Below, one piece after another: positions 1,213 to 35,997 of a stretch of 40,860 nt of DNA. Position 1 is the first letter of the stretch; every line of letters begins with the position of its first letter. The translations under genes and the position numbers were made by a program. The notes beneath the pieces are model-generated. The model made no database searches. It saw only the letters and a list, made by a program, of their open reading frames with translations, and was not told the DNA's origin. The DNA comes from Candidatus Woesearchaeota archaeon (GTDB taxonomy: Archaea > Nanobdellota > Nanobdellia > SCGC-AAA011-G17 > JACPIM01): NCBI GenBank assembly GCA_965603615.1, contig CBFDDQ010000001.1, positions 1 to 40,860 of the forward strand, given 5' to 3'.

Positions 1213-1614
1213 ATGAAAAGAAGAAAGAAAAAATGTATGAAATGTAGAAAAAAGTATGTAAGTAATCCAACCCATGATTATTGTTTTAGTTGTTATAGTA
1301 AACAAAGAGAAGAAGATGAAGACACACATCCAGAAGACCATTTTGAAAATAACTTAGATACAAATTTAATTCACACAGTTTATATTATGATTTATGGTAA
1401 TAAAAATAAAATAGGTTATACTGGAGATTTACATTCAAGAATATTTGAATTAAAAAGAAAATATCCCAATAATAAATTAGTTTATTTCAGAGAATTTATG
1501 ACAGAAACTCAAGCTAGAGATTTTGAAGTATGGTTAAAGAAAATTTCTAAAAGGGAACTTAATAAATTTATTACTAATTTTATGACTAAAATAAATAAAT
1601 TAGAAGCTATTTAA
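1213..1614 (+). CDS. GIY-YIG family nuclease domain protein with N-terminal zinc ribbon
   Basis: 133 aa. CMKCRKK...CFSCY forms a Cys4 ribbon. VYIMIYGNKNKIGYTGDLHSRIFELKR followed by conserved acidic residues matches the GIY-(x10)-YIG-R core. Confidence 0.7.
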   Translation: MKRRKKKCMKCRKKYVSNPTHDYCFSCYSKQREEDEDTHPEDHFENNLDTNLIHTVYIMIYGNKNKIGYTGDLHSRIFELKRKYPNNKLVYFREFMTETQARDFEVWLKKISKRELNKFITNFMTKINKLEAI

Positions 1615-1810: not shown

Positions 1811-2425
1811 TTAATTTTTAAAAGATTTGGAAGTTCTAAAATTAATCCAATTGTATTCATCAAGTAACTTTGGTAGTGTTTTATTTGTCTCTTTAATAAT
1901 ATCATCCTTCCTATGTTTTTTTAAGATATTTAGTATTTCTTCTTGCATTAATCTCATAAAATTAATATAACCAGTAGAATTTGGATAACAACCATAATGT
2001 TCAGAAATTCCATTGTCCCACATAACAAACAAATTTGGATTTATACCATGTATTAATTTTGATGTTCCTACTCCTCCAAATGAAGTTGTCTTTTTTGGAC
2101 TTTCCAATTTAATATCACAAAGTTTATCAAATATTTTTTTAACTAATCTTATATTTTTTTGATTAAATTTAAAGTTTTCAATATTATAATTTTTTAGAGC
2201 TATAAATTCATCTTTTAAAGTTAATACTACCTCTTTTATTTTATCTTTATTTTTACCTATAGGTACTCTTGTATTCCATCTTCTAACAAAATCTATTATA
2301 GAATCTATCTCCTCAAAAGAATCTTTAATAGGTAAAATTAATTCTTTATAGGCTTCATCATATTCAAAGGTCTTTGATTTATGTGTGTCTATTAAAGATT
2401 TATATGTTATATTAAATTCACTCAT
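1811..2425 (-). CDS. Hypothetical protein, last gene of the RM-associated cassette
   Basis: 204-aa ORF. Its start overlaps the stop of the upstream nuclease gene by 4 nt. There is a conserved-looking core GVGTSKLIHGINPNLFVMWDN. No family confidently recognised. Confidence 0.65.
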   Translation of the reverse strand: MSEFNITYKSLIDTHKSKTFEYDEAYKELILPIKDSFEEIDSIIDFVRRWNTRVPIGKNKDKIKEVVLTLKDEFIALKNYNIENFKFNQKNIRLVKKIFDKLCDIKLESPKKTTSFGGVGTSKLIHGINPNLFVMWDNGISEHYGCYPNSTGYINFMRLMQEEILNILKKHRKDDIIKETNKTLPKLLDEYNWINFRTSKSFKN

Positions 2426-2931
2426 TTTTCTCCAACCTTCTCATTTAAAAAACTAGAAGTATCATTTAACTCTAATCCCAACAAATCCCATTTTTCTAAA
2501 AATTCTTTATATTCATCAGAAAATTTTCTCATCTTAGATACAGGTTCAAATCCTTTTATTCTTAACCTGTCTTTATAGGCATTATGAGTGGTTCTAGTGT
2601 GTAAGGCGACTTTATTACTTGGGACTATATAAAAATCTGGTCTTTCCTTACCTTCTTTTAATAAAACAAATACATAAAATAAGGTATCACTTTCATAATT
2701 ATCTGCTTTTTCTCCTAATATCCAACGAGGATACTTTTTTCTTGGATACATAGTTGTTTTTACTTGAATACCCACAGAATTAGATGCATCAGAATTTGAA
2801 GCTAATATATCAATTCCCTTAGTATTCTTTAATGTAATAGAAGCAATATAGCCTCTTTTACTTAATTCGCCAGCAACAAAATACTCTCCTGCTACTCCTC
2901 TAAGGATTTTACTTGGCTTATTTTTTATCAT
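2422..2931 (-). CDS. PD-(D/E)xK superfamily nuclease-like protein (DUF4365/Hjc-like layout)
   Basis: 169 aa. GVAGEYFVAGELSKRGY ... KGIDILA ... VGIQVKTT gives the GE / D / (E/Q)-x-K arrangement of PD-(D/E)xK nucleases. Confidence 0.6.
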   Translation of the reverse strand: MIKNKPSKILRGVAGEYFVAGELSKRGYIASITLKNTKGIDILASNSDASNSVGIQVKTTMYPRKKYPRWILGEKADNYESDTLFYVFVLLKEGKERPDFYIVPSNKVALHTRTTHNAYKDRLRIKGFEPVSKMRKFSDEYKEFLEKWDLLGLELNDTSSFLNEKVGEK

Positions 2932-2967
2932 TTCTTAATCTCTAATCTAAATTGTATTGAGTTCATT

Positions 2968-5325
2968 TTAATTTTTTAATGATTTTGAATAAGGTAAAGA
3001 TTTAATATATTTTTCAATAAAATCCCAATCAGGTTCATCTCTATCATTTACAGGTAATTTAATATATGTTTTCTTTAATCTATCCTTATCTAAAACCCTC
3101 CCATAAGAATATCTTATTTTTTCTAATCTTAATAACGTTACTAAGAACAATCCTGTATACACATTAAAGGGGGTAATATCTTTTGGTAATAAGGCTTTAA
3201 CTCTTGTAAAAATTGCTCCTAATTCAGATTGATAAAATGCATGACCACCAGCCCCTATTGACACCAAAGATATAAAACTTTTAAACTTTTTCTCTCCATT
3301 AAATAATATTTTTTCTTTAATACCATTATTTGTAGTAAGGTTTTCTATTGAATTTACTAATATTCCTTCTTGGTGTTTCAAGTCTGTTTCTTTTGGTTTA
3401 TCCCCTCCAGAATAAACTTCAAATAATTTATCTATCTCAAAATCCTTCCAATTTTCAATATTTAAATTAGGTATAATTTCTTTTGATGAAGAATTTTTAG
3501 AAACCTCTTCAGAAAGATTATTTAAAAAAAGATGCCCACTATACTCTTTTAAAACCTCTATAAAAAAATCTTTGTTAAGTATTTTATAGTCTGGTTGCAT
3601 ATATGCTTCTATACACCACTCATCTTTTTCACTTACTAACTTAGTTAATGAATAAGGGGTAATTTTATTATTTTTAAAATTATATAACCATTCTTTTTTA
3701 ATACCTTTCCATTTATGAAAATAATCGCATCTTCCTAAAGACCTATTTTTAACAAATCCATCTTCTTTCCAATATCCAAAAAAAGTTTCTTTATCTTTAG
3801 GATGGGGTTTATGAGCTCTAAATACAACAACAGCAGTAACTGTCCCAACATCAGAATTCACAAATAAACTATTTGGCATTGAGAATACAGCCTCTAGTGT
3901 ATGGTCTTTTAATAATCTTTTTTTTAGCTCATAAACTTTACCCTTTTGGGCTATTACTCCACTCATTGGAACAATTGCTAAGCATAAACCATTTGGTTCT
4001 ATCATATCAAGATTATTTAATACATATTCAAATTCCTCTGTGTCACTCTTTTTATCTGACTTATAAGGAGGATTTAAAAAACCTATATTTGGTTTATATT
4101 TATTTTTAATTTTTTTTATTAATTTTTTATCAAAACAATCTCCTTTAAAGATACCACTCTTACCATCTCCATGAATAAACATATTAGAACAAACAAGAGC
4201 AAATATATCATTTTGGTATTCAATTCCTACAATTTGATTTTGTTTAATATTTTTGATTTTTTTCTCATTATCTTTTGAATCTTCAATCATCTTTTTTAAA
4301 GCACTTATTAAAAATCCACCAGTTCCACAACAATTATCAAAAACTATAGAATTTTTATTAACTTGAGCTATATCTGCAAAAAGTTCTGTAATGTGTGGAG
4401 GTGTTAAAACTATCCCAAGACCTTTATCCGAATTAGCATACCTTAAGAACTCTATATAAAATTGTCCTAATACATCATAATATTTATAAGTTCTCATAAA
4501 TTTATTAATATTTTTATCAATATCTCTAATTATATCTTTTAATTTGTTTATATCTTTACTAAAAGCTTCGTGGTCTTGAATAAACGAATAAGCCCTTTTT
4601 AATCCTTCAACCTTAGTTTGTTGCAAACCTTTTTTTAGTTCACTATAAATTGTATTGACTAGATACTTTGTTAATTCTTGGGGTTCCTTATATTTTTCAT
4701 AAGAAATTTTGAAATGTTCCTTTTTTAAGGCTAATAATATTCCTGATATTAACAAACTCCTATAGGATTCTTTTACTTTTAATTTATGTAATGTTGTATT
4801 AAGTTCCTTAGAATAAATCATTAAATCACTAAAATCTTGGTTAAATTTTATATCACTTGCTTTATAAGAATTAATATAGTTTTCTAATGGTAGTAATTGT
4901 TCTCCATCAAAATCATTTGCTAATGCACTATTCTTTGTTTGTAAAAAGTGAGAGACTTTTAATTCTTTTTTTGTTTCTCCACTAACAGCAATAGAAATCA
5001 CATCAAACTCCTTTGATAAATAAGATGAATATAACAAAGCACCATCAACTGCATATTCTGAATATTTATCTTTAGTTATACTTTCGTGCTTCTTTATATC
5101 TCCTTTACACTCTACAACAATTATTAAATTTGGTTCTTCTTTATAGGAGATTATAAATTCAGGATAACCTATACCATTTCCTCTTTTGGAGGCTATTTTT
5201 AATAACTTATTGATTCTTGGGTTTTTAGATTGTTGTTCTTCAATTATAACTTTATCTTTTTTTATAAAAGAATCTTTATAAAAATGTTTTCTAACAATAT
5301 TCTCCGTATTTCTTTCATTAACCAT
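2968..5325 (-). CDS. Fused restriction-modification-specificity enzyme (type IIG/IIC-like): N-terminal nuclease, N6-adenine DNA methyltransferase and HsdS-type TRD
   Basis: 785 aa. The N-terminus GYPEFII...LIIVVECKG is PD-ExK-like (HsdR N-terminal type). The HsdM-like MTase has motif I VFDNCCGTGGFL and motif IV FLNPPYK. The C-terminal ~180 aa resembles one HsdS target-recognition domain (WKDFEIDKLFEVYSGG, SIGAGGHAFYQ, YSYGRVL, IKLPV). Confidence 0.85.
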   Translation of the reverse strand: MVNERNTENIVRKHFYKDSFIKKDKVIIEEQQSKNPRINKLLKIASKRGNGIGYPEFIISYKEEPNLIIVVECKGDIKKHESITKDKYSEYAVDGALLYSSYLSKEFDVISIAVSGETKKELKVSHFLQTKNSALANDFDGEQLLPLENYINSYKASDIKFNQDFSDLMIYSKELNTTLHKLKVKESYRSLLISGILLALKKEHFKISYEKYKEPQELTKYLVNTIYSELKKGLQQTKVEGLKRAYSFIQDHEAFSKDINKLKDIIRDIDKNINKFMRTYKYYDVLGQFYIEFLRYANSDKGLGIVLTPPHITELFADIAQVNKNSIVFDNCCGTGGFLISALKKMIEDSKDNEKKIKNIKQNQIVGIEYQNDIFALVCSNMFIHGDGKSGIFKGDCFDKKLIKKIKNKYKPNIGFLNPPYKSDKKSDTEEFEYVLNNLDMIEPNGLCLAIVPMSGVIAQKGKVYELKKRLLKDHTLEAVFSMPNSLFVNSDVGTVTAVVVFRAHKPHPKDKETFFGYWKEDGFVKNRSLGRCDYFHKWKGIKKEWLYNFKNNKITPYSLTKLVSEKDEWCIEAYMQPDYKILNKDFFIEVLKEYSGHLFLNNLSEEVSKNSSSKEIIPNLNIENWKDFEIDKLFEVYSGGDKPKETDLKHQEGILVNSIENLTTNNGIKEKILFNGEKKFKSFISLVSIGAGGHAFYQSELGAIFTRVKALLPKDITPFNVYTGLFLVTLLRLEKIRYSYGRVLDKDRLKKTYIKLPVNDRDEPDWDFIEKYIKSLPYSKSLKN

Positions 5326-5328
5326 CTT

Positions 5329-5514
5329 TTATTTTTTCAAAAAGTATATTTTAGTCTTACCCATGAGTTTATGACCAATTTTACCTAACTTATGTAAAGC
5401 ATCTAAATAACCAGAAGTGTAATCCTTACCCTTTCCAACTTCCTCCGCAATTTCTCTATGATTTAGAGGTTCACTTGATTGCTTTAGTAATTTAAGTATT
5501 TTCTCGTAAGGCAT
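5329..5514 (-). CDS. Small winged-helix DNA-binding protein, candidate controller of the RM cassette
   Basis: 61 aa. The stop lies 3 nt before the RM gene start. LNHREIAEEVGKGKDYTSGYLDALHKLGKI looks like an HTH followed by a wing. First gene of the operon, directly downstream of palindromic repeats. Confidence 0.6.
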   Translation of the reverse strand: MPYEKILKLLKQSSEPLNHREIAEEVGKGKDYTSGYLDALHKLGKIGHKLMGKTKIYFLKK

Positions 5515-5522
5515 TGTTATAC

Positions 5523-5571
5523 ATAACAGGTTATATAACCTATCTATATAAACCTTCTTATAACCTGTTAC
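5523..5571. promoter_or_regulatory. Operator-like palindromes upstream of the RM cassette (C-box-like)
   Basis: Perfect 12-bp palindrome ggttatataacc (5529..5540). An 11-bp inverted repeat taacaggttat (5524..5534) / ataacctgtta (5560..5570) flanks tatctatataaa. All of this lies in the 65-bp gap upstream of the wHTH gene. Confidence 0.45.
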
Positions 5572-5579
5572 ATATCAGG

Positions 5580-5852
5580 CTAAGGATAATCCACACAACT
5601 TTCATCATGCCTATACTTAGTGCACCTTAAAACTCTTCTAATAGTTTTATACCAACCCTTAACAAAACCATATTTCTTTAATGCTAAAATACCATACTCA
5701 GAACAATGTGGATGAAAACCACAAATAATTTTATTTTTTCTATTTAATAAAGGTTTAATCTTTTTTCTATAAATCTTTTTAATAAGCCATATAGAAAATC
5801 TTTGAAAAATATTAAGTCTCCTTTTTGTAGTAGAGTTTTTGCTTTTTGACAT
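5580..5852 (-). CDS. yidD: YidD-like protein (membrane protein insertion efficiency factor family)
   Basis: 90 aa. CGFHPHCSEYGILALKKYGFVKGWYKTIRRVLRC...DYP matches the YidD signature C-x-F-x-P-x-CS-x-Y ... G ... R-x-x-RC ... D-P. Confidence 0.65.
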   Translation of the reverse strand: MSKSKNSTTKRRLNIFQRFSIWLIKKIYRKKIKPLLNRKNKIICGFHPHCSEYGILALKKYGFVKGWYKTIRRVLRCTKYRHDESCVDYP

Positions 5853-12193: not shown

Positions 12194-13543
12194 TTATTCT
12201 CTAAACTTATCCATTATATTCACAAATTTCTCTTCAGGATGTTTCAAAGCATAAGCAAAGATATCTTTAAATTCTTTTTCTGTTTTCTTATCTTTCTCCT
12301 CTTGCTCTACAACAGTCTTCAAATCCAAAGCCATATAACACTTAACACATAAACTATTAGTTGAACTGTTAACAAATCCACACCTTACACATTTTTTAGG
12401 TTTTAATATATCTTCAGTTTCTCTTTTATCTAACAAACCAGCTTTCTCTAAAACAGTTTTTTCAATATCAGCACCAGCTAAATGAATATAAGTTGAAGGT
12501 GTTGAAGAACCAGGAAACCAACCACACCAGATTCTTAATTGTGCTTCATTAAATCCTTGTCTTGATAATTCTGTAGCTCTACAATGTCTAAAAGAATGAG
12601 GATAACACTTCTTTAGAGAAATTCCTGCCTTATTTCCTATCACTTTAATTACTTTCTTTAAGCCATCTTCTCCTAAAGCCTTTCCAAACCAGGAACCTAT
12701 ATTAATCCACAAAGGAGATTCTCCATCTTCTTTATTTGGATGTGCCTCATACCACTTTTTAAGGTCAGGAACACATTCTATCAATCTCAATCTTCTAGAA
12801 TCAGTTTTCCCTTGAGGTATCAAAATAATAGCTCCTTTATCATCAAAAACTAAATGTTTTATTCTTAATCTCAAAAACTCTCCTCTTCTCGCACCAGTTT
12901 CATAAAGAGTAAATAACAAAGCTTTGTCTCTAACATTATCTGATACTTGTATTAATTTTTTAACATCCTTCACTGATAGAACATCCTCAGGTAGCTTAAT
13001 ACCATTTTTTCTTGTGAGATTAATCCAGCTCACAATCTTAGGATATTTTCCTTTTTCCTCAAAATTATAAAACCATTTAAAGAAAGCCTTAGTATTAATC
13101 TTACAGGTTAAAATTGTCTTTGGTTTTAATTTATATTTTTTCTCTAAATCAATAAGAAAGTTCTCTATATCCTTCTTTGTTATTTTTTCAAAATCTTTTC
13201 CTATCCTTATAACCATAAGTTTTGCATAATTAAGATAACTTCTACGCGTGTCTATTGAAGTTGTATGATTCATTAAATGTTTATAATATATCTTTAATAC
13301 CTTTATTTGACATTTAGTTAATCTGTCATCATTAAATATAGCTTCTATTCTCCTATCAATCTTATCAGCCAAATCATCCTCAAAGGTTTTAGAAGCTGAA
13401 GAATTGTATAATCTCTGAAATTTAATATATCTACTAAGTACCTTTCTCTCATTTCTTCCTAAAGTACCTGTTTTAAACAAATCTTCTGATTCTTGCAAAG
13501 TTAACCTCTTAAAATCTTTTAACATTGGTTTTGAAACTGTCAT
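12194..13543 (-). CDS. int: Tyrosine recombinase/integrase with C-terminal zinc ribbon
   Basis: 449 aa. Catalytic signature: TGARRGEFLRLR (Arg I), HSFRHCRATEL (H-x-x-R) and STYIHL (Tyr). There is an N-terminal SAM-like core-binding region. The C-terminal ribbon is CVRCGF...CVKC. Confidence 0.9.
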   Translation of the reverse strand: MTVSKPMLKDFKRLTLQESEDLFKTGTLGRNERKVLSRYIKFQRLYNSSASKTFEDDLADKIDRRIEAIFNDDRLTKCQIKVLKIYYKHLMNHTTSIDTRRSYLNYAKLMVIRIGKDFEKITKKDIENFLIDLEKKYKLKPKTILTCKINTKAFFKWFYNFEEKGKYPKIVSWINLTRKNGIKLPEDVLSVKDVKKLIQVSDNVRDKALLFTLYETGARRGEFLRLRIKHLVFDDKGAIILIPQGKTDSRRLRLIECVPDLKKWYEAHPNKEDGESPLWINIGSWFGKALGEDGLKKVIKVIGNKAGISLKKCYPHSFRHCRATELSRQGFNEAQLRIWCGWFPGSSTPSTYIHLAGADIEKTVLEKAGLLDKRETEDILKPKKCVRCGFVNSSTNSLCVKCYMALDLKTVVEQEEKDKKTEKEFKDIFAYALKHPEEKFVNIMDKFRE

Positions 13544-33795: not shown

Positions 33796-35997
33796 ATGAC
33801 ACAATTAATTATTTCAGAAAAACCTACTGCAGCGCAAAAAATAGCTGCAGCACTAGCAGATAAAAAACCAAAAAAAATCTTAGTAAATAAAGTTCCATAT
33901 TACGAATTAGAACATAAAGGAAAAAAAATTATTGTAGCTTGTGCAGTGGGTCATCTTTACGGGTTAAAACAAGAAACAGGAAAAAAATCTGAATATCCAG
34001 TTTTTAACATTGATTGGTATCCAGCTTCAGAATTTAGAAAAAGTGCAGCTTTTACAAAAAAATATCTTACAATTATTAAAAAATTAGCTAAAGAAGCAGA
34101 TGAATTTATTGTAGCAACAGATTATGATATAGAGGGGGAAGTTATTGGTTTAAACATAATAAAATATGCTTGTAAACAAAAAGATGCACAAAGAATGAAG
34201 TTCTCCACTTTAACAAAAAATGATTTAATTAAATCTTATGAAGAAAGAACTAAACATATTGATTGGCCTCAAGCAAATGCCGGCGAAGCAAGACATAAAA
34301 TGGATTGGTTTTTTGGAATAAACCTATCAAGAGCTCTAACAACTGCAATTAAAGAAACAGGATCATTTAAACTTATGTCTACAGGAAGAGTTCAAGGACC
34401 AGCATTAAAATTAATTGTGGACAAAGAAAAAGAAATTAAAAAATTCAAGCCAGATCCTTACTGGGAAATCCAATTAACAGGAAAAATAAACAAAGGAAAC
34501 ATTATAACTTATCATAAATTAGGAAAAATATTCGAAAAAAAGAAAGCTAGTAATATTTTTAACAAATGTAAAAAAGAAAAAAAAGCAGAAGTACTAAAAG
34601 TTGAGAAAAAACAATTTAAATCTTATCCACCTATACCTTTTGATTTAACTTCTTTACAAATTGAAGCTTACAAATGTATTAATTTTTCACCGAGAATTAC
34701 CCTTTCAGTTGCACAAAAGCTTTATACAAGAGGATATATATCATACCCAAGAACTTCTTCACAGCCATTACCCCAAAGTATTGGTTATAAAAAAATAATT
34801 ACTTCTTTATGAAGATTATACCCAAGAGAAGCAAATTTTTTACTAAAAAAACCAATACTAAAACCAACTTATGGTAGAAAAACAGATCCAGCACACCCTG
34901 CAATATATCCTACAGGAATTATACCAAAATTCAAGAATACTTATGAAAAGAAACTTTATGATTTAATTGCAAGGAGATTCTTGGCTGTATTTGGAGAACC
35001 TGCTTTAAGAAAAACTATAATAGTAACTTTAGATTGTAAAAAAGAAAATTTTATTGCAAAAGGAACAACTACTATTAAGCAAGGTTGGTTTGAACTTTAT
35101 GGCAGACATGTAAAACTAAAAGAAGAAGAACTTCCAAAAATTAAAGAAGGAGATATTTGTCAAATTAAAAAACTTGAAAAATTAAATAAAGAAACCTCCC
35201 CACCAAAAAGATATACAGAATCTTCTCTGATTAAAGCCCTAGAAAAAGAAAACCTGGGAACAAAAGCTACAAGATCCCAGATAATAGAAACTTTATACAA
35301 TAGAGGGTTTATTGATGAAAAAGCAATACAAGCAACAGAGCTTGGTATAAGAACAGAGGAAACTTTAGAAAAATATTCTCCTAAAATAGTAGAATCTGCT
35401 TTAACAAGACACTTTGAAGAATCAATGGAAAAAATAAGGAGTGGTAAAGAAAAATCAGAAAAAGTATTAAAAGAATCTAAAGAAACAATAATTGAAATCA
35501 CAAAACAATTTAACAAGCATTTAAAGCAAATAGGTAAAGAACTTCTTGCAGCTCATAAAGAAACAAGAAATGTTATGACTTTCGTTGGCCAGTGCCCTAA
35601 TTGTAAAAAAGGAGAGTTGCATATAAGAAGAGGAAAATTTGGTAATTTCATTTCATGTAATAAATATCCTGATTGTAAAACTATATTTTCTGTTCCACAA
35701 GTTATTGTTAAACCAACCAAGGAAATATGTGAAACTTGCAAACATCATAAAGTTAAAATTATTAAAAAAAGAAGAGCACCGCAGATAATTTGTATAAATT
35801 CCAAATGTCCAGAAAAATTAAAAAATTATACAAAAAAACAAAGAAAAGAATTAGAAGATATAGAACAAGGAAAAAAAGAAAAAAAATGTCCTAAATGTGA
35901 TTCTCCTTTAAAATTAAGAAAATCTATTTATGGTGCATTCTTAGGTTGTAGTAATTACCCAAAATGCAGATATATAGAAAAAATTAAGCAGAAATAA
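33796..35997 (+). CDS. topA: DNA topoisomerase IA, interrupted by a single in-frame TGA at 34810..34812
   Basis: Toprim motifs LIISEKP and ATDYDIEGE. Active-site Tyr in GYISYPRTSS. After the TGA the same frame continues with the conserved DPAHPAIYPT and LYDLIARRF. The C-terminal topo-I Zn ribbons are CPNCKKG...CNKYPDCK and CPKCDS...CSNYPKCR. Confidence 0.85.

Follow-up and report, generated by a model that had tools for sequence, protein, structure and literature searches.

Restriction–modification (RM) systems are the commonest form of defence in prokaryotes and are regarded as closed units of two or three components, and the known defence content of DPANN archaea is low. A four-gene cassette on a contig of a Candidatus Woesearchaeota archaeon (GenBank assembly GCA_965603615.1, contig CBFDDQ010000001.1) raises the question of whether such a unit can hold further components, as a gene for a small winged-helix protein and one for a fused RM enzyme are followed here by genes for two small proteins of 169 and 204 amino acids (aa). 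The window that we analyzed is the entire 40.86-kb contig (GC content 24–33%). An original prediction made from its sequence had proposed that the cassette is a composite or modification-dependent defence module. Our verdict is that the locus consists of a known RM core and two real accessory families, so that it is indeed composite, but it is not a defined four-gene system, and we found nothing that points to modification dependence. The conserved unit is a methylase or specificity (S) gene together with a nuclease of the 169-aa family, to which the gene for the 204-aa protein is an occasional add-on.

A Type IIG enzyme behind a palindromic promoter region

Four co-directional open reading frames (ORFs), all on the minus strand, occupy positions 1811–5514. 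They encode a 61-aa winged-helix protein (5329–5514), a 785-aa Type IIG enzyme in which restriction (R), modification (M) and S parts are fused (2968–5325), a 169-aa PD-(D/E)xK nuclease (2422–2931) and a 204-aa DUF6308-like protein (1811–2425). Their tight packing, described beforehand as gaps of 3 and 36 nucleotides (nt) and one ATGA overlap, is borne out by the ORF calls and by the junctions read from the DNA: TAA-AAG-ATG between the winged-helix and RM genes, a 36-nt gap between the RM and 169-aa genes, and an overlap of the form ...GAA AAA TGA over ATG AGT where the 169-aa gene meets the 204-aa gene.

As judged from its domains, the 785-aa protein is a complete BcgI-like Type IIG R-M-S fusion enzyme. 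It matches the PADLOC models REase_MTase_IIG (PDLC03608, E = 1.5e-167, residues 2–597) and Specificity_II (8.6e-10, residues 620–775) as well as N6_Mtase of Pfam (5.8e-28, residues 283–516), and the nuclease-like N-terminus, GTGGFL/NPPY methylase and HsdS-type target recognition domain (TRD) that the original prediction had read in it are all there. On the minus strand, the nuclease motif PE(55–56)-x15-ECK(72–74), within PEF (55–57) and VECK (71–74), lies at 5104–5163; the gamma-class N6-adenine (N6A) methylase domain spans 3778–4479, with motif I CGTGGFL (residues 333–339) at 4309–4329 and motif IV NPPY (residues 418–421) at 4063–4074; and the single HsdS-type TRD (residues 620–775) is found at 3001–3468. 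We regard the protein as BcgI-like with a fused S module because its relatives are pairs of an R-M gene and a separate S gene. Residues 1–603 are 50% identical to an R-M protein of 626 aa in locus L107, where S is encoded by a gene of its own (328 aa), and the TRD is 32–34% identical to the separate S subunits of L107 and L201. It is also ~40% identical to the products of 'N-6 DNA methylase' genes on bacterial plasmids, in each of which an S gene comes next. No gene of the 169-aa or 204-aa family was found near these plasmid homologues, which are thus RM units without either small gene; this argues that the RM enzyme family is self-sufficient, in agreement with what had been expected of a fused Type IIG enzyme. 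By analogy with its class, the 785-aa enzyme would be expected to cleave at a fixed distance from one defined site, and to methylate that site, in a manner dependent on S-adenosylmethionine.

The palindrome-rich promoter region that had been noticed upstream of the cassette is likewise real. The 65-nt promoter/operator spacer ahead of the 61-aa gene (5515–5579, minus strand) contains 17-nt inverted arms at 5519–5535 and 5559–5575 and a central palindrome, AGGTTATATAACCT, at 5528–5541, and the 15 base pairs of its inverted repeat were reached in none of 1000 shuffles. Between the arms, ~30 nt ahead of the ATG, stands a TATA-like TTTATATA (5545–5552), which may be an archaeal TATA box. The 61-aa protein matches the TBPIP winged helix of Pfam above the cut-off (6e-07), with weaker ArsR and HTH_24 matches, and has no HTH_3 (Xre-type) match in Pfam. 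No homologue of it was present in any of the ~200 related loci that were fetched. We suggest that it may be a functional analogue of the controller (C) protein that controls expression of the RM gene, and that the palindromic spacer could have an autoregulatory role.

A nuclease of an unnamed family

The 169-aa protein is confidently predicted to have the fold of a PD-(D/E)xK nuclease, and would be a stand-alone member of a family that has not been named. Its AlphaFold2 model has a predicted local distance difference test (pLDDT) score of 89.8 and the topology helix 8–25, strand 29–37, strand 40–45, strand 52–61, in keeping with the alpha-beta-beta-beta-alpha-beta core of the superfamily. Foldseek returned 38 matches to this model at E ≤ 1e-3, every one of them a PD-(D/E)xK-fold nuclease, including the homing endonuclease I-Ssp6803I (the best, 7.9e-06), the nuclease domain of the SPARDA effector, Hjc, EcoRV and NhoI. 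The GE...D...QVK motif that had been pointed out is present, and in an alignment of 45 family members the catalytic residues E16 (2884–2886, minus strand) and D41 (2809–2811, minus strand) and Q56 and K58 of Q56-V-K58 (2758–2766, minus strand) are invariant. A C-terminal extension is conserved as well (H116, G127, R135 and W148).

The earlier description of this protein as a 'DUF4365/Hjc-like nuclease' was thus right about the fold, including a structural match to Hjc, but not about DUF4365 (PF14280), for which there was no Pfam match at E ≤ 1; the sole Pfam match was a spurious one to Pox_D5 (0.041). The SPARDA effector nuclease domain is what we take to be a DUF4365-type domain. No family in Pfam, NCBIfam or PADLOC matched the 169-aa protein, no sequence in the PDB was detectably related to it, and the PHROG families that it does match, three in number, are of unknown function. 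The family is nonetheless a sizeable one, with 831 relatives in a collection of 5.8 billion proteins, at least 490 of them on metagenome contigs, and with 50–75% identity across Nanoarchaeota, Euryarchaeota, Latescibacterota and Chloroflexi. Its annotated phage and plasmid relatives are only ~33%-identical 'hypothetical proteins'. Two members (P0066 and P0445) are called 'aspartate ammonia-lyase' in NCBI records, which looks like a propagated mis-annotation; the other source names are 'hypothetical protein'.

Recurrence beside methylases without tracking of specificity

Of the 26 distinct loci of this family that were well flanked, with no less than 1.5 kb to either side, 10 have a methylase or S gene within three genes of the nuclease gene and 7 have one as its direct neighbor on the same strand; genes in all fetched loci are greedy ORF calls, and the methylases among them were identified through phmmer searches with 19 query proteins rather than by Pfam. 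From general knowledge, a methylase would be expected within three genes of a random gene in well under a few percent of cases, and relative to this expectation the family is enriched beside DNA methylases. Co-occurrence with RM genes in related genomes, which the original prediction had named as a test of the defence module, holds in part: the nuclease family does adjoin methylases and its pairing with the 204-aa family recurs once, but the winged-helix gene is unique to the window and the pair is rare, and the neighborhood with RM genes is only partly conserved.

The partner enzymes are of several kinds. The nuclease gene comes after an R-M gene (740 aa) and an S gene (358 aa) in L105, where a transposase gene stands in front, after the R-M and S genes already described in L107, after an M gene whose 392-aa product has no nuclease domain and an S gene (461 aa) in L108, and after a gene for a 799-aa N6 methylase in L158. 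It precedes the gene for an 847-aa IIG enzyme in L125, for an 840-aa C5/N6 double methylase in L144 and for a 316-aa C5 methylase in L103, which belongs to a related DPANN genome. The methylase partners thus span the C5, gamma-N6A and beta classes. Across this variety the nucleases of the close group remain 63–79% identical, whereas the adjacent S/TRD modules are only 20–35% identical. It follows that the 169-aa protein is not a specificity-matched restriction endonuclease, and its constancy beside variable S/TRD modules means that it is either a nuclease that cleaves without recognizing the site or one with no part in RM function. From these comparisons of sequences, we infer that the nuclease probably does not read a recognition sequence.

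It would be tempting to see in the 169-aa protein a conventional sequence-specific Type II restriction endonuclease whose target is protected by the adjacent methylase. A small protein with a PD-(D/E)xK fold would suit a homodimeric restriction endonuclease, EcoRV is among its structural matches, and in L103, L108 and L144 the family member is the only nuclease candidate beside the methylase. However, the unequal conservation of nucleases and S/TRD modules and the different chemical classes of the partner methylases do not fit such an enzyme, 16 of the 26 loci have no methylase within three genes, and conservation of this degree across phyla is unusual for restriction endonucleases in general. 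We therefore consider this reading quite improbable.

We doubt just as strongly that the protein is the product of a free-standing, homing-endonuclease-like selfish gene that passes from genome to genome and lies near RM genes by chance. This idea draws on the best structural match being a homing endonuclease, on the patchy distribution of the family and its 50–57% identity between archaea and Chloroflexi, on two copies that share one 32-kb contig (L181/L184), and on copies in viral contigs and phage accessory regions. Against it, no intron or intein context was found in the loci, and the gene occupies a consistent same-strand, operonic place 3' of methylase–S genes whose different classes offer no common DNA target.

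Several further arrangements of the family deserve mention as observations in their own right. In L099 (4803–6456), a DUF6884 gene lies two genes upstream of the nuclease gene with a GIY-YIG gene between them, and in L100 (Ardenticatena maritima) the nuclease gene is part of an Abi-like Ymh island; the contig of L099, which is related to that of L100, has other cargo in the corresponding position ahead of an identical nuclease gene. On the contig of L181/L184 (MWWI01000029.1, 32 kb), a gene for an AAA_22/TniB-like ATPase (261–265 aa), one for a 236–242-aa protein of unknown function and the nuclease gene occur together twice, ~19 kb apart. The same module is seen again in L177 and L179 and looks like a repeated mobile unit. 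Some members of the family are found in viral contigs and in phage accessory regions.

A conserved all-alpha protein distantly related to DUF6308

The second small protein, which had been described as having a conserved core and as impossible to place, proved as elusive in our searches. No match to the 204-aa protein was found in Pfam (E ≤ 1), NCBIfam, PADLOC or PHROGs, and neither small protein matched a component of any anti-phage system in PADLOC-DB 2.0 (0 families), so that the searches of hidden Markov model (HMM) libraries assigned neither of them to a characterized family. Nothing on either family appears in an archaeal immunity survey, and a literature search returned no paper that mentions DUF6308 or PDC-M57. 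The close family of the 204-aa protein has 54 members; at E ≤ 1e-3, a profile search of 1.84 billion representatives widened it to a superfamily of 1703 clusters at 50% identity. DUF6308 (PF19827) matched 29 of 65 distant relatives at E ≤ 0.01 (best 1.2e-06, model positions ~56–178), and the matches that were inspected scored 16–22 bits, all under the gathering score of 27.3. On these sequence matches, the 204-aa protein would be a divergent and at best distant relative of DUF6308.

Conservation centers on the core GGVGTSKLIHGINPNLFVMWD (residues 117–137). Across the superfamily K123 (2057–2059, minus strand) and D189 (1859–1861, minus strand) are invariant, and R53, H126, D137 (2015–2017, minus strand), Y153 and K186 nearly so. 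The conserved Lys and Asp residues look like an active site and, because they are invariant, the protein is probably an enzyme. Its AlphaFold2 model is all-alpha with a pLDDT of 93, and had no Foldseek match at E < 1 in the PDB or BFVD.

One candidate identity, a divergent HhH-GPD DNA glycosylase whose abasic product would be cut by the neighboring nuclease, strikes us as highly improbable. By eye, the motif G-x-T-A/S-x-S-K...(14)...D (GVGTSK...D) resembles the HhH-GPD signature, the top Foldseek match, a non-significant one, was MagIII (E = 1.9, TM score 0.31), with MutY and MUTYH lower, and a YaaA-like DNA-binding domain is joined to the 204-like part in one relative. These resemblances are set against a model of high confidence that nevertheless found no structural match at E < 1, and against the absence of an HhH-GPD match in Pfam at E ≤ 1 and of any sequence match in the PDB. 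When the glycosylase identity was tried by hhalign against an endonuclease III alignment, the result was a probability of 0.4% with the alignment out of register, and we rejected it.

The fused relative, P0320, which gives the small proteins their only family link to PADLOC-DB, matches the PADLOC candidate PDC-M57A over residues 11–138, an N-terminal domain joined to the 204-like domain, and Pfam places DUF6884 in one member of the alignment of P0320; we take the two to be the same domain in the same protein. DUF6884 is a YaaA-like domain that has been proposed to bind DNA (PMC11701544). The fusion is thus a weak pointer that ties the 204-aa family to DNA. The domain is linked to both small families, since it stands near the 169-family nuclease gene of L099 and appears fused to the 204-like domain in P0320.

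The neighborhoods of the 204-aa family place it in defence or mobile islands: RM genes, methylases, the abortive infection (Abi) gene AIPR, toxin–antitoxin pairs, HerA and transposases are found around it. A methylase or S gene was within three genes in 8 of 58 well-flanked distinct loci, and adjacent on the same strand in 4. Individual loci illustrate the range. L001 repeats the IIG, nuclease and 204-family cassette of the window; the gene adjoins DUF5131 and a protein with a GMT-like wHTH domain in L002, an Eco57I-type methylase and Dam in L005, and NTase/HEPN, PIN or ParE toxin–antitoxin genes in L007 and L008, in the latter following an SPL-like radical-SAM gene; L188 is an island of DUF2779, AIPR, a methylase, RadC and the 204-family gene; and in L010 the gene lies between rpS7 and an intein-containing gene for elongation factor 2 (EF-2). 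HerA-like ATPases are encoded near the gene in three loci. A common upstream partner was sought and rejected: the upstream gene is usually tightly coupled but unrelated between loci, its product being a 49-aa ORF, proteins of 126, 141 or 195 aa of unknown function, a 339-aa protein with a GMT-like wHTH domain, or an SPL-like protein. By eye, the GMT-like wHTH protein, in L002 and as the 339-aa upstream product, resembles TcmP.

Two recurring arrangements were seen alongside these. In L010–L014 and L020, which are of Pacearchaeota type, genes for proteins of 132 and 195 aa and for a 208-aa homologue of the 204-aa protein form a block with overlapping starts (for example L010, 7032–8627); the block is inserted between the genes for ribosomal protein S7 and EF-2, and the EF-2 intein has a LAGLIDADG domain. 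In L048 (1562–10335) and L059 (1799–6318), a 204-superfamily gene is co-directional with genes for a HerA/DUF87 ATPase and a beta-class N6_N4 methylase, L048 adding an 892-aa protein and L059 having an SPL-like gene nearby. These two clusters may represent a distinct methylase–HerA system that uses a DUF6308-like protein.

Do the four genes act together?

Only one other organism was found to have the full arrangement of IIG enzyme, 169-aa nuclease and 204-aa protein (L001 and L109, apparently the same locus). The enzyme there is 28% identical to that of the window, over the methylase core only, against 63% and ~59% for the 169-aa and 204-aa proteins. The pair has thus come together with two unlike RM enzymes, a point in favor of some linkage. 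In Ardenticatena maritima (LGKN01000006.1, L100/L101), a 204-superfamily gene lies 3.3 kb from the 169-family gene in one variable island (L100, 2113–6456), which consists of the 199-aa 204-superfamily gene, Hypoth_Ymh (Abi-like), DUF4236 and the nuclease gene. In all, only 3 independent loci among the 74 of the 169-aa family had a 204-like gene. A conserved two-gene module of the two small families was considered and ruled out, the nuclease being missing from the fetched 204-superfamily loci except L001.

We speculate that an RM core is joined here by auxiliary cleavage from the 169-aa nuclease and by modulation from the 204-aa protein, and tentatively regard this as the best explanation of the locus, held at somewhat less than an even chance. 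The cassette would then be a small, mobile islet of defence genes in the chromosome of a DPANN-type archaeon. The IIG enzyme would methylate host sites and cut unmethylated incoming DNA, which would discriminate self from non-self, and the 61-aa protein, bound to the palindromic operator, would probably time expression of the RM gene. The 169-aa nuclease might add a second, sequence-independent cut to DNA on which the RM complex is engaged or which it has already cleaved, and might be the sole nuclease of the operon where the methylase has no nuclease domain. The 204-aa protein, translationally coupled to the nuclease, may modulate or complement it.

Mere juxtaposition is the most serious competitor of this idea, and we rate it as rather unlikely. 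It holds that the IIG enzyme is the only functional unit and that the two small genes are independent defence or selfish island genes that landed downstream. That RM homologues exist without both small genes is consistent with it, as are the highly heterogeneous neighborhoods of both small families, the near-complete lack of a nuclease beside the 204 superfamily, and the transposases and integrases nearby. But the ATGA overlap and the 36-nt gap indicate a single transcript, the pair is met again downstream of an IIG enzyme that is not orthologous, and the 27% of nuclease loci with a same-strand adjacent methylase or S gene is far above the chance level expected from general knowledge.

Several points nevertheless weigh against auxiliary cleavage and modulation. 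Gene identities, folds and neighborhood statistics are what we observed; all functional coupling is what we infer from them, any interaction of the small proteins with the RM enzyme included. The enzyme of the window, like several of the partner enzymes, retains an intact nuclease motif (an equivalent of the (D/E)...ExK motif is kept in the enzymes of L107, L001 and L125), so why a second nuclease should be needed is not obvious. It is hard to imagine a common interface with both C5 and gamma-N6A methylases. Most of the well-flanked nuclease loci (16/26) are those without a nearby methylase, and the enrichment is judged against an expectation from general knowledge. Lastly, only one of 78 distinct 204-superfamily loci, L001, has a 169-family nuclease, and among all the loci of that superfamily that were fetched, 80 GTDB loci included, no other does.

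Genomic setting of the cassette

The contig carries genes for PolD DP1 and DP2, Cdc6, LonB, CDC48, SerRS and topoisomerase I, and the nearest relatives of both small proteins are in Nanoarchaeota, Pacearchaeota and Parvarchaeota; the host is accordingly an archaeon of DPANN type. A tyrosine integrase gene (12194–13543, minus strand; Phage_integrase and SAM-like domains) separates the left part of the contig, which is rich in small ORFs and includes the RM cassette, from the PolD/Cdc6 replication genes. Possibly, an integrated element makes up the left 13 kb (region 1–13.5 kb); the window has no tRNA gene. Convergent with the cassette is a 133-aa ORF (1213–1614, plus strand) with a Cys-rich N-terminal stretch and a weak match, below the cut-off, to a MUG113/T5orf172-type (GIY-YIG-like) domain (E = 0.0021). 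Just upstream of the cassette, a 90-aa ORF (5580–5852, minus strand) contains CGFHPHCSEYG, which by eye resembles the motif of the membrane-insertion factor YidD.

Topoisomerase I is represented by two ORFs of 338 aa each (33796–34812 and 34981–35997, plus strand), 168 nt apart, the first with Toprim and the first half of Topoisom_bac, the second with the second half and zinc ribbons. A single 837-aa gene encodes it in the related DPANN locus L103. The two ORFs could be a split gene or reflect a frameshift or an intervening element.

Implications and relation to known systems

The recurrence of the 169-aa family in Type I-like, IIB/IIG and C5 methylase operons without tracking of their specificity suggests that restriction has an accessory layer not yet recognized, or else that the family hitchhikes on RM genes with great success. 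A broader proposal, which we put forward as an unlikely one, is that this family, in some lineages together with a DUF6308-like protein, is a portable, specificity-independent effector layer for methyltransferase-based immunity. If this were true, the 169-family protein might serve RM systems of many types as a common second nuclease, or it might stand guard and be triggered once the RM complex engages or becomes inhibited; the DUF6308-like protein, for its part, would be an enzyme or regulator of new fold, and the whole would amount to an undescribed class of RM accessory module across bacteria and archaea. Because no model in Pfam, NCBIfam or PADLOC covers them, both small families are invisible to current defence annotation, that of DPANN archaea included. 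Of the leads from this locus, the nuclease family that is linked to methylases yet independent of their specificity is the most valuable. The DUF6308-like fold comes second: the 204-aa family is large, has a confident fold with no match in solved or viral structures, and is a reasonable target for function discovery.

In its kind, the locus is known in part: a Type IIG/IIB RM core with a controller-like regulator, beside which neither small protein fits a characterized family. Like BcgI-like Type IIB/IIG systems, in which the A subunit unites nuclease and methylase and the B subunit is HsdS-like, the 785-aa enzyme has an N-terminal PD-(D/E)xK motif, a gamma-class N6A methylase with motif I ahead of motif IV, and an HsdS-type TRD. 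It differs from them in that its specificity domain is fused and has one TRD only, and from the plasmid BcgI-like relatives in being followed by two extra genes that the plasmids do not have. As in RM systems under C-protein control, the gene for a small DNA-binding protein lies immediately upstream of the RM gene on the same strand, and the regulator gene is preceded by a statistically significant palindromic operator that overlaps its promoter. Unlike in those systems, the putative regulator is a TBPIP/ArsR-like winged helix and not an Xre-type HTH_3 C protein, and it is not kept in related cassettes.

The two small proteins are further from anything known. Members of DUF6308 are similar in size to the relatives of the 204-aa protein (~200–240 aa), whereas the protein of the window itself has no match to this family at E ≤ 1. 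With small PD-(D/E)xK nucleases such as I-Ssp6803I, Hjc, the SPARDA nuclease domain and EcoRV, the 169-aa protein shares its predicted fold and the E...D...(Q)xK arrangement (Foldseek E values of 8e-06 to 1e-03). It differs from these four in having no sequence-level match in Pfam or the PDB and in its conserved C-terminal extension, and the genes of its family adjoin methylases, not introns, Argonautes or replication genes. A further parallel is one of concept. In the heterodimeric Type IIS enzymes BtsI and BsrDI, cleavage of one strand by a second, small nuclease subunit requires the large subunit, so that a small nuclease without specificity of its own likewise works beside a large enzyme that bears it. 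What sets the 169-aa family apart from this arrangement is that its partners are methylase-containing proteins of several classes.

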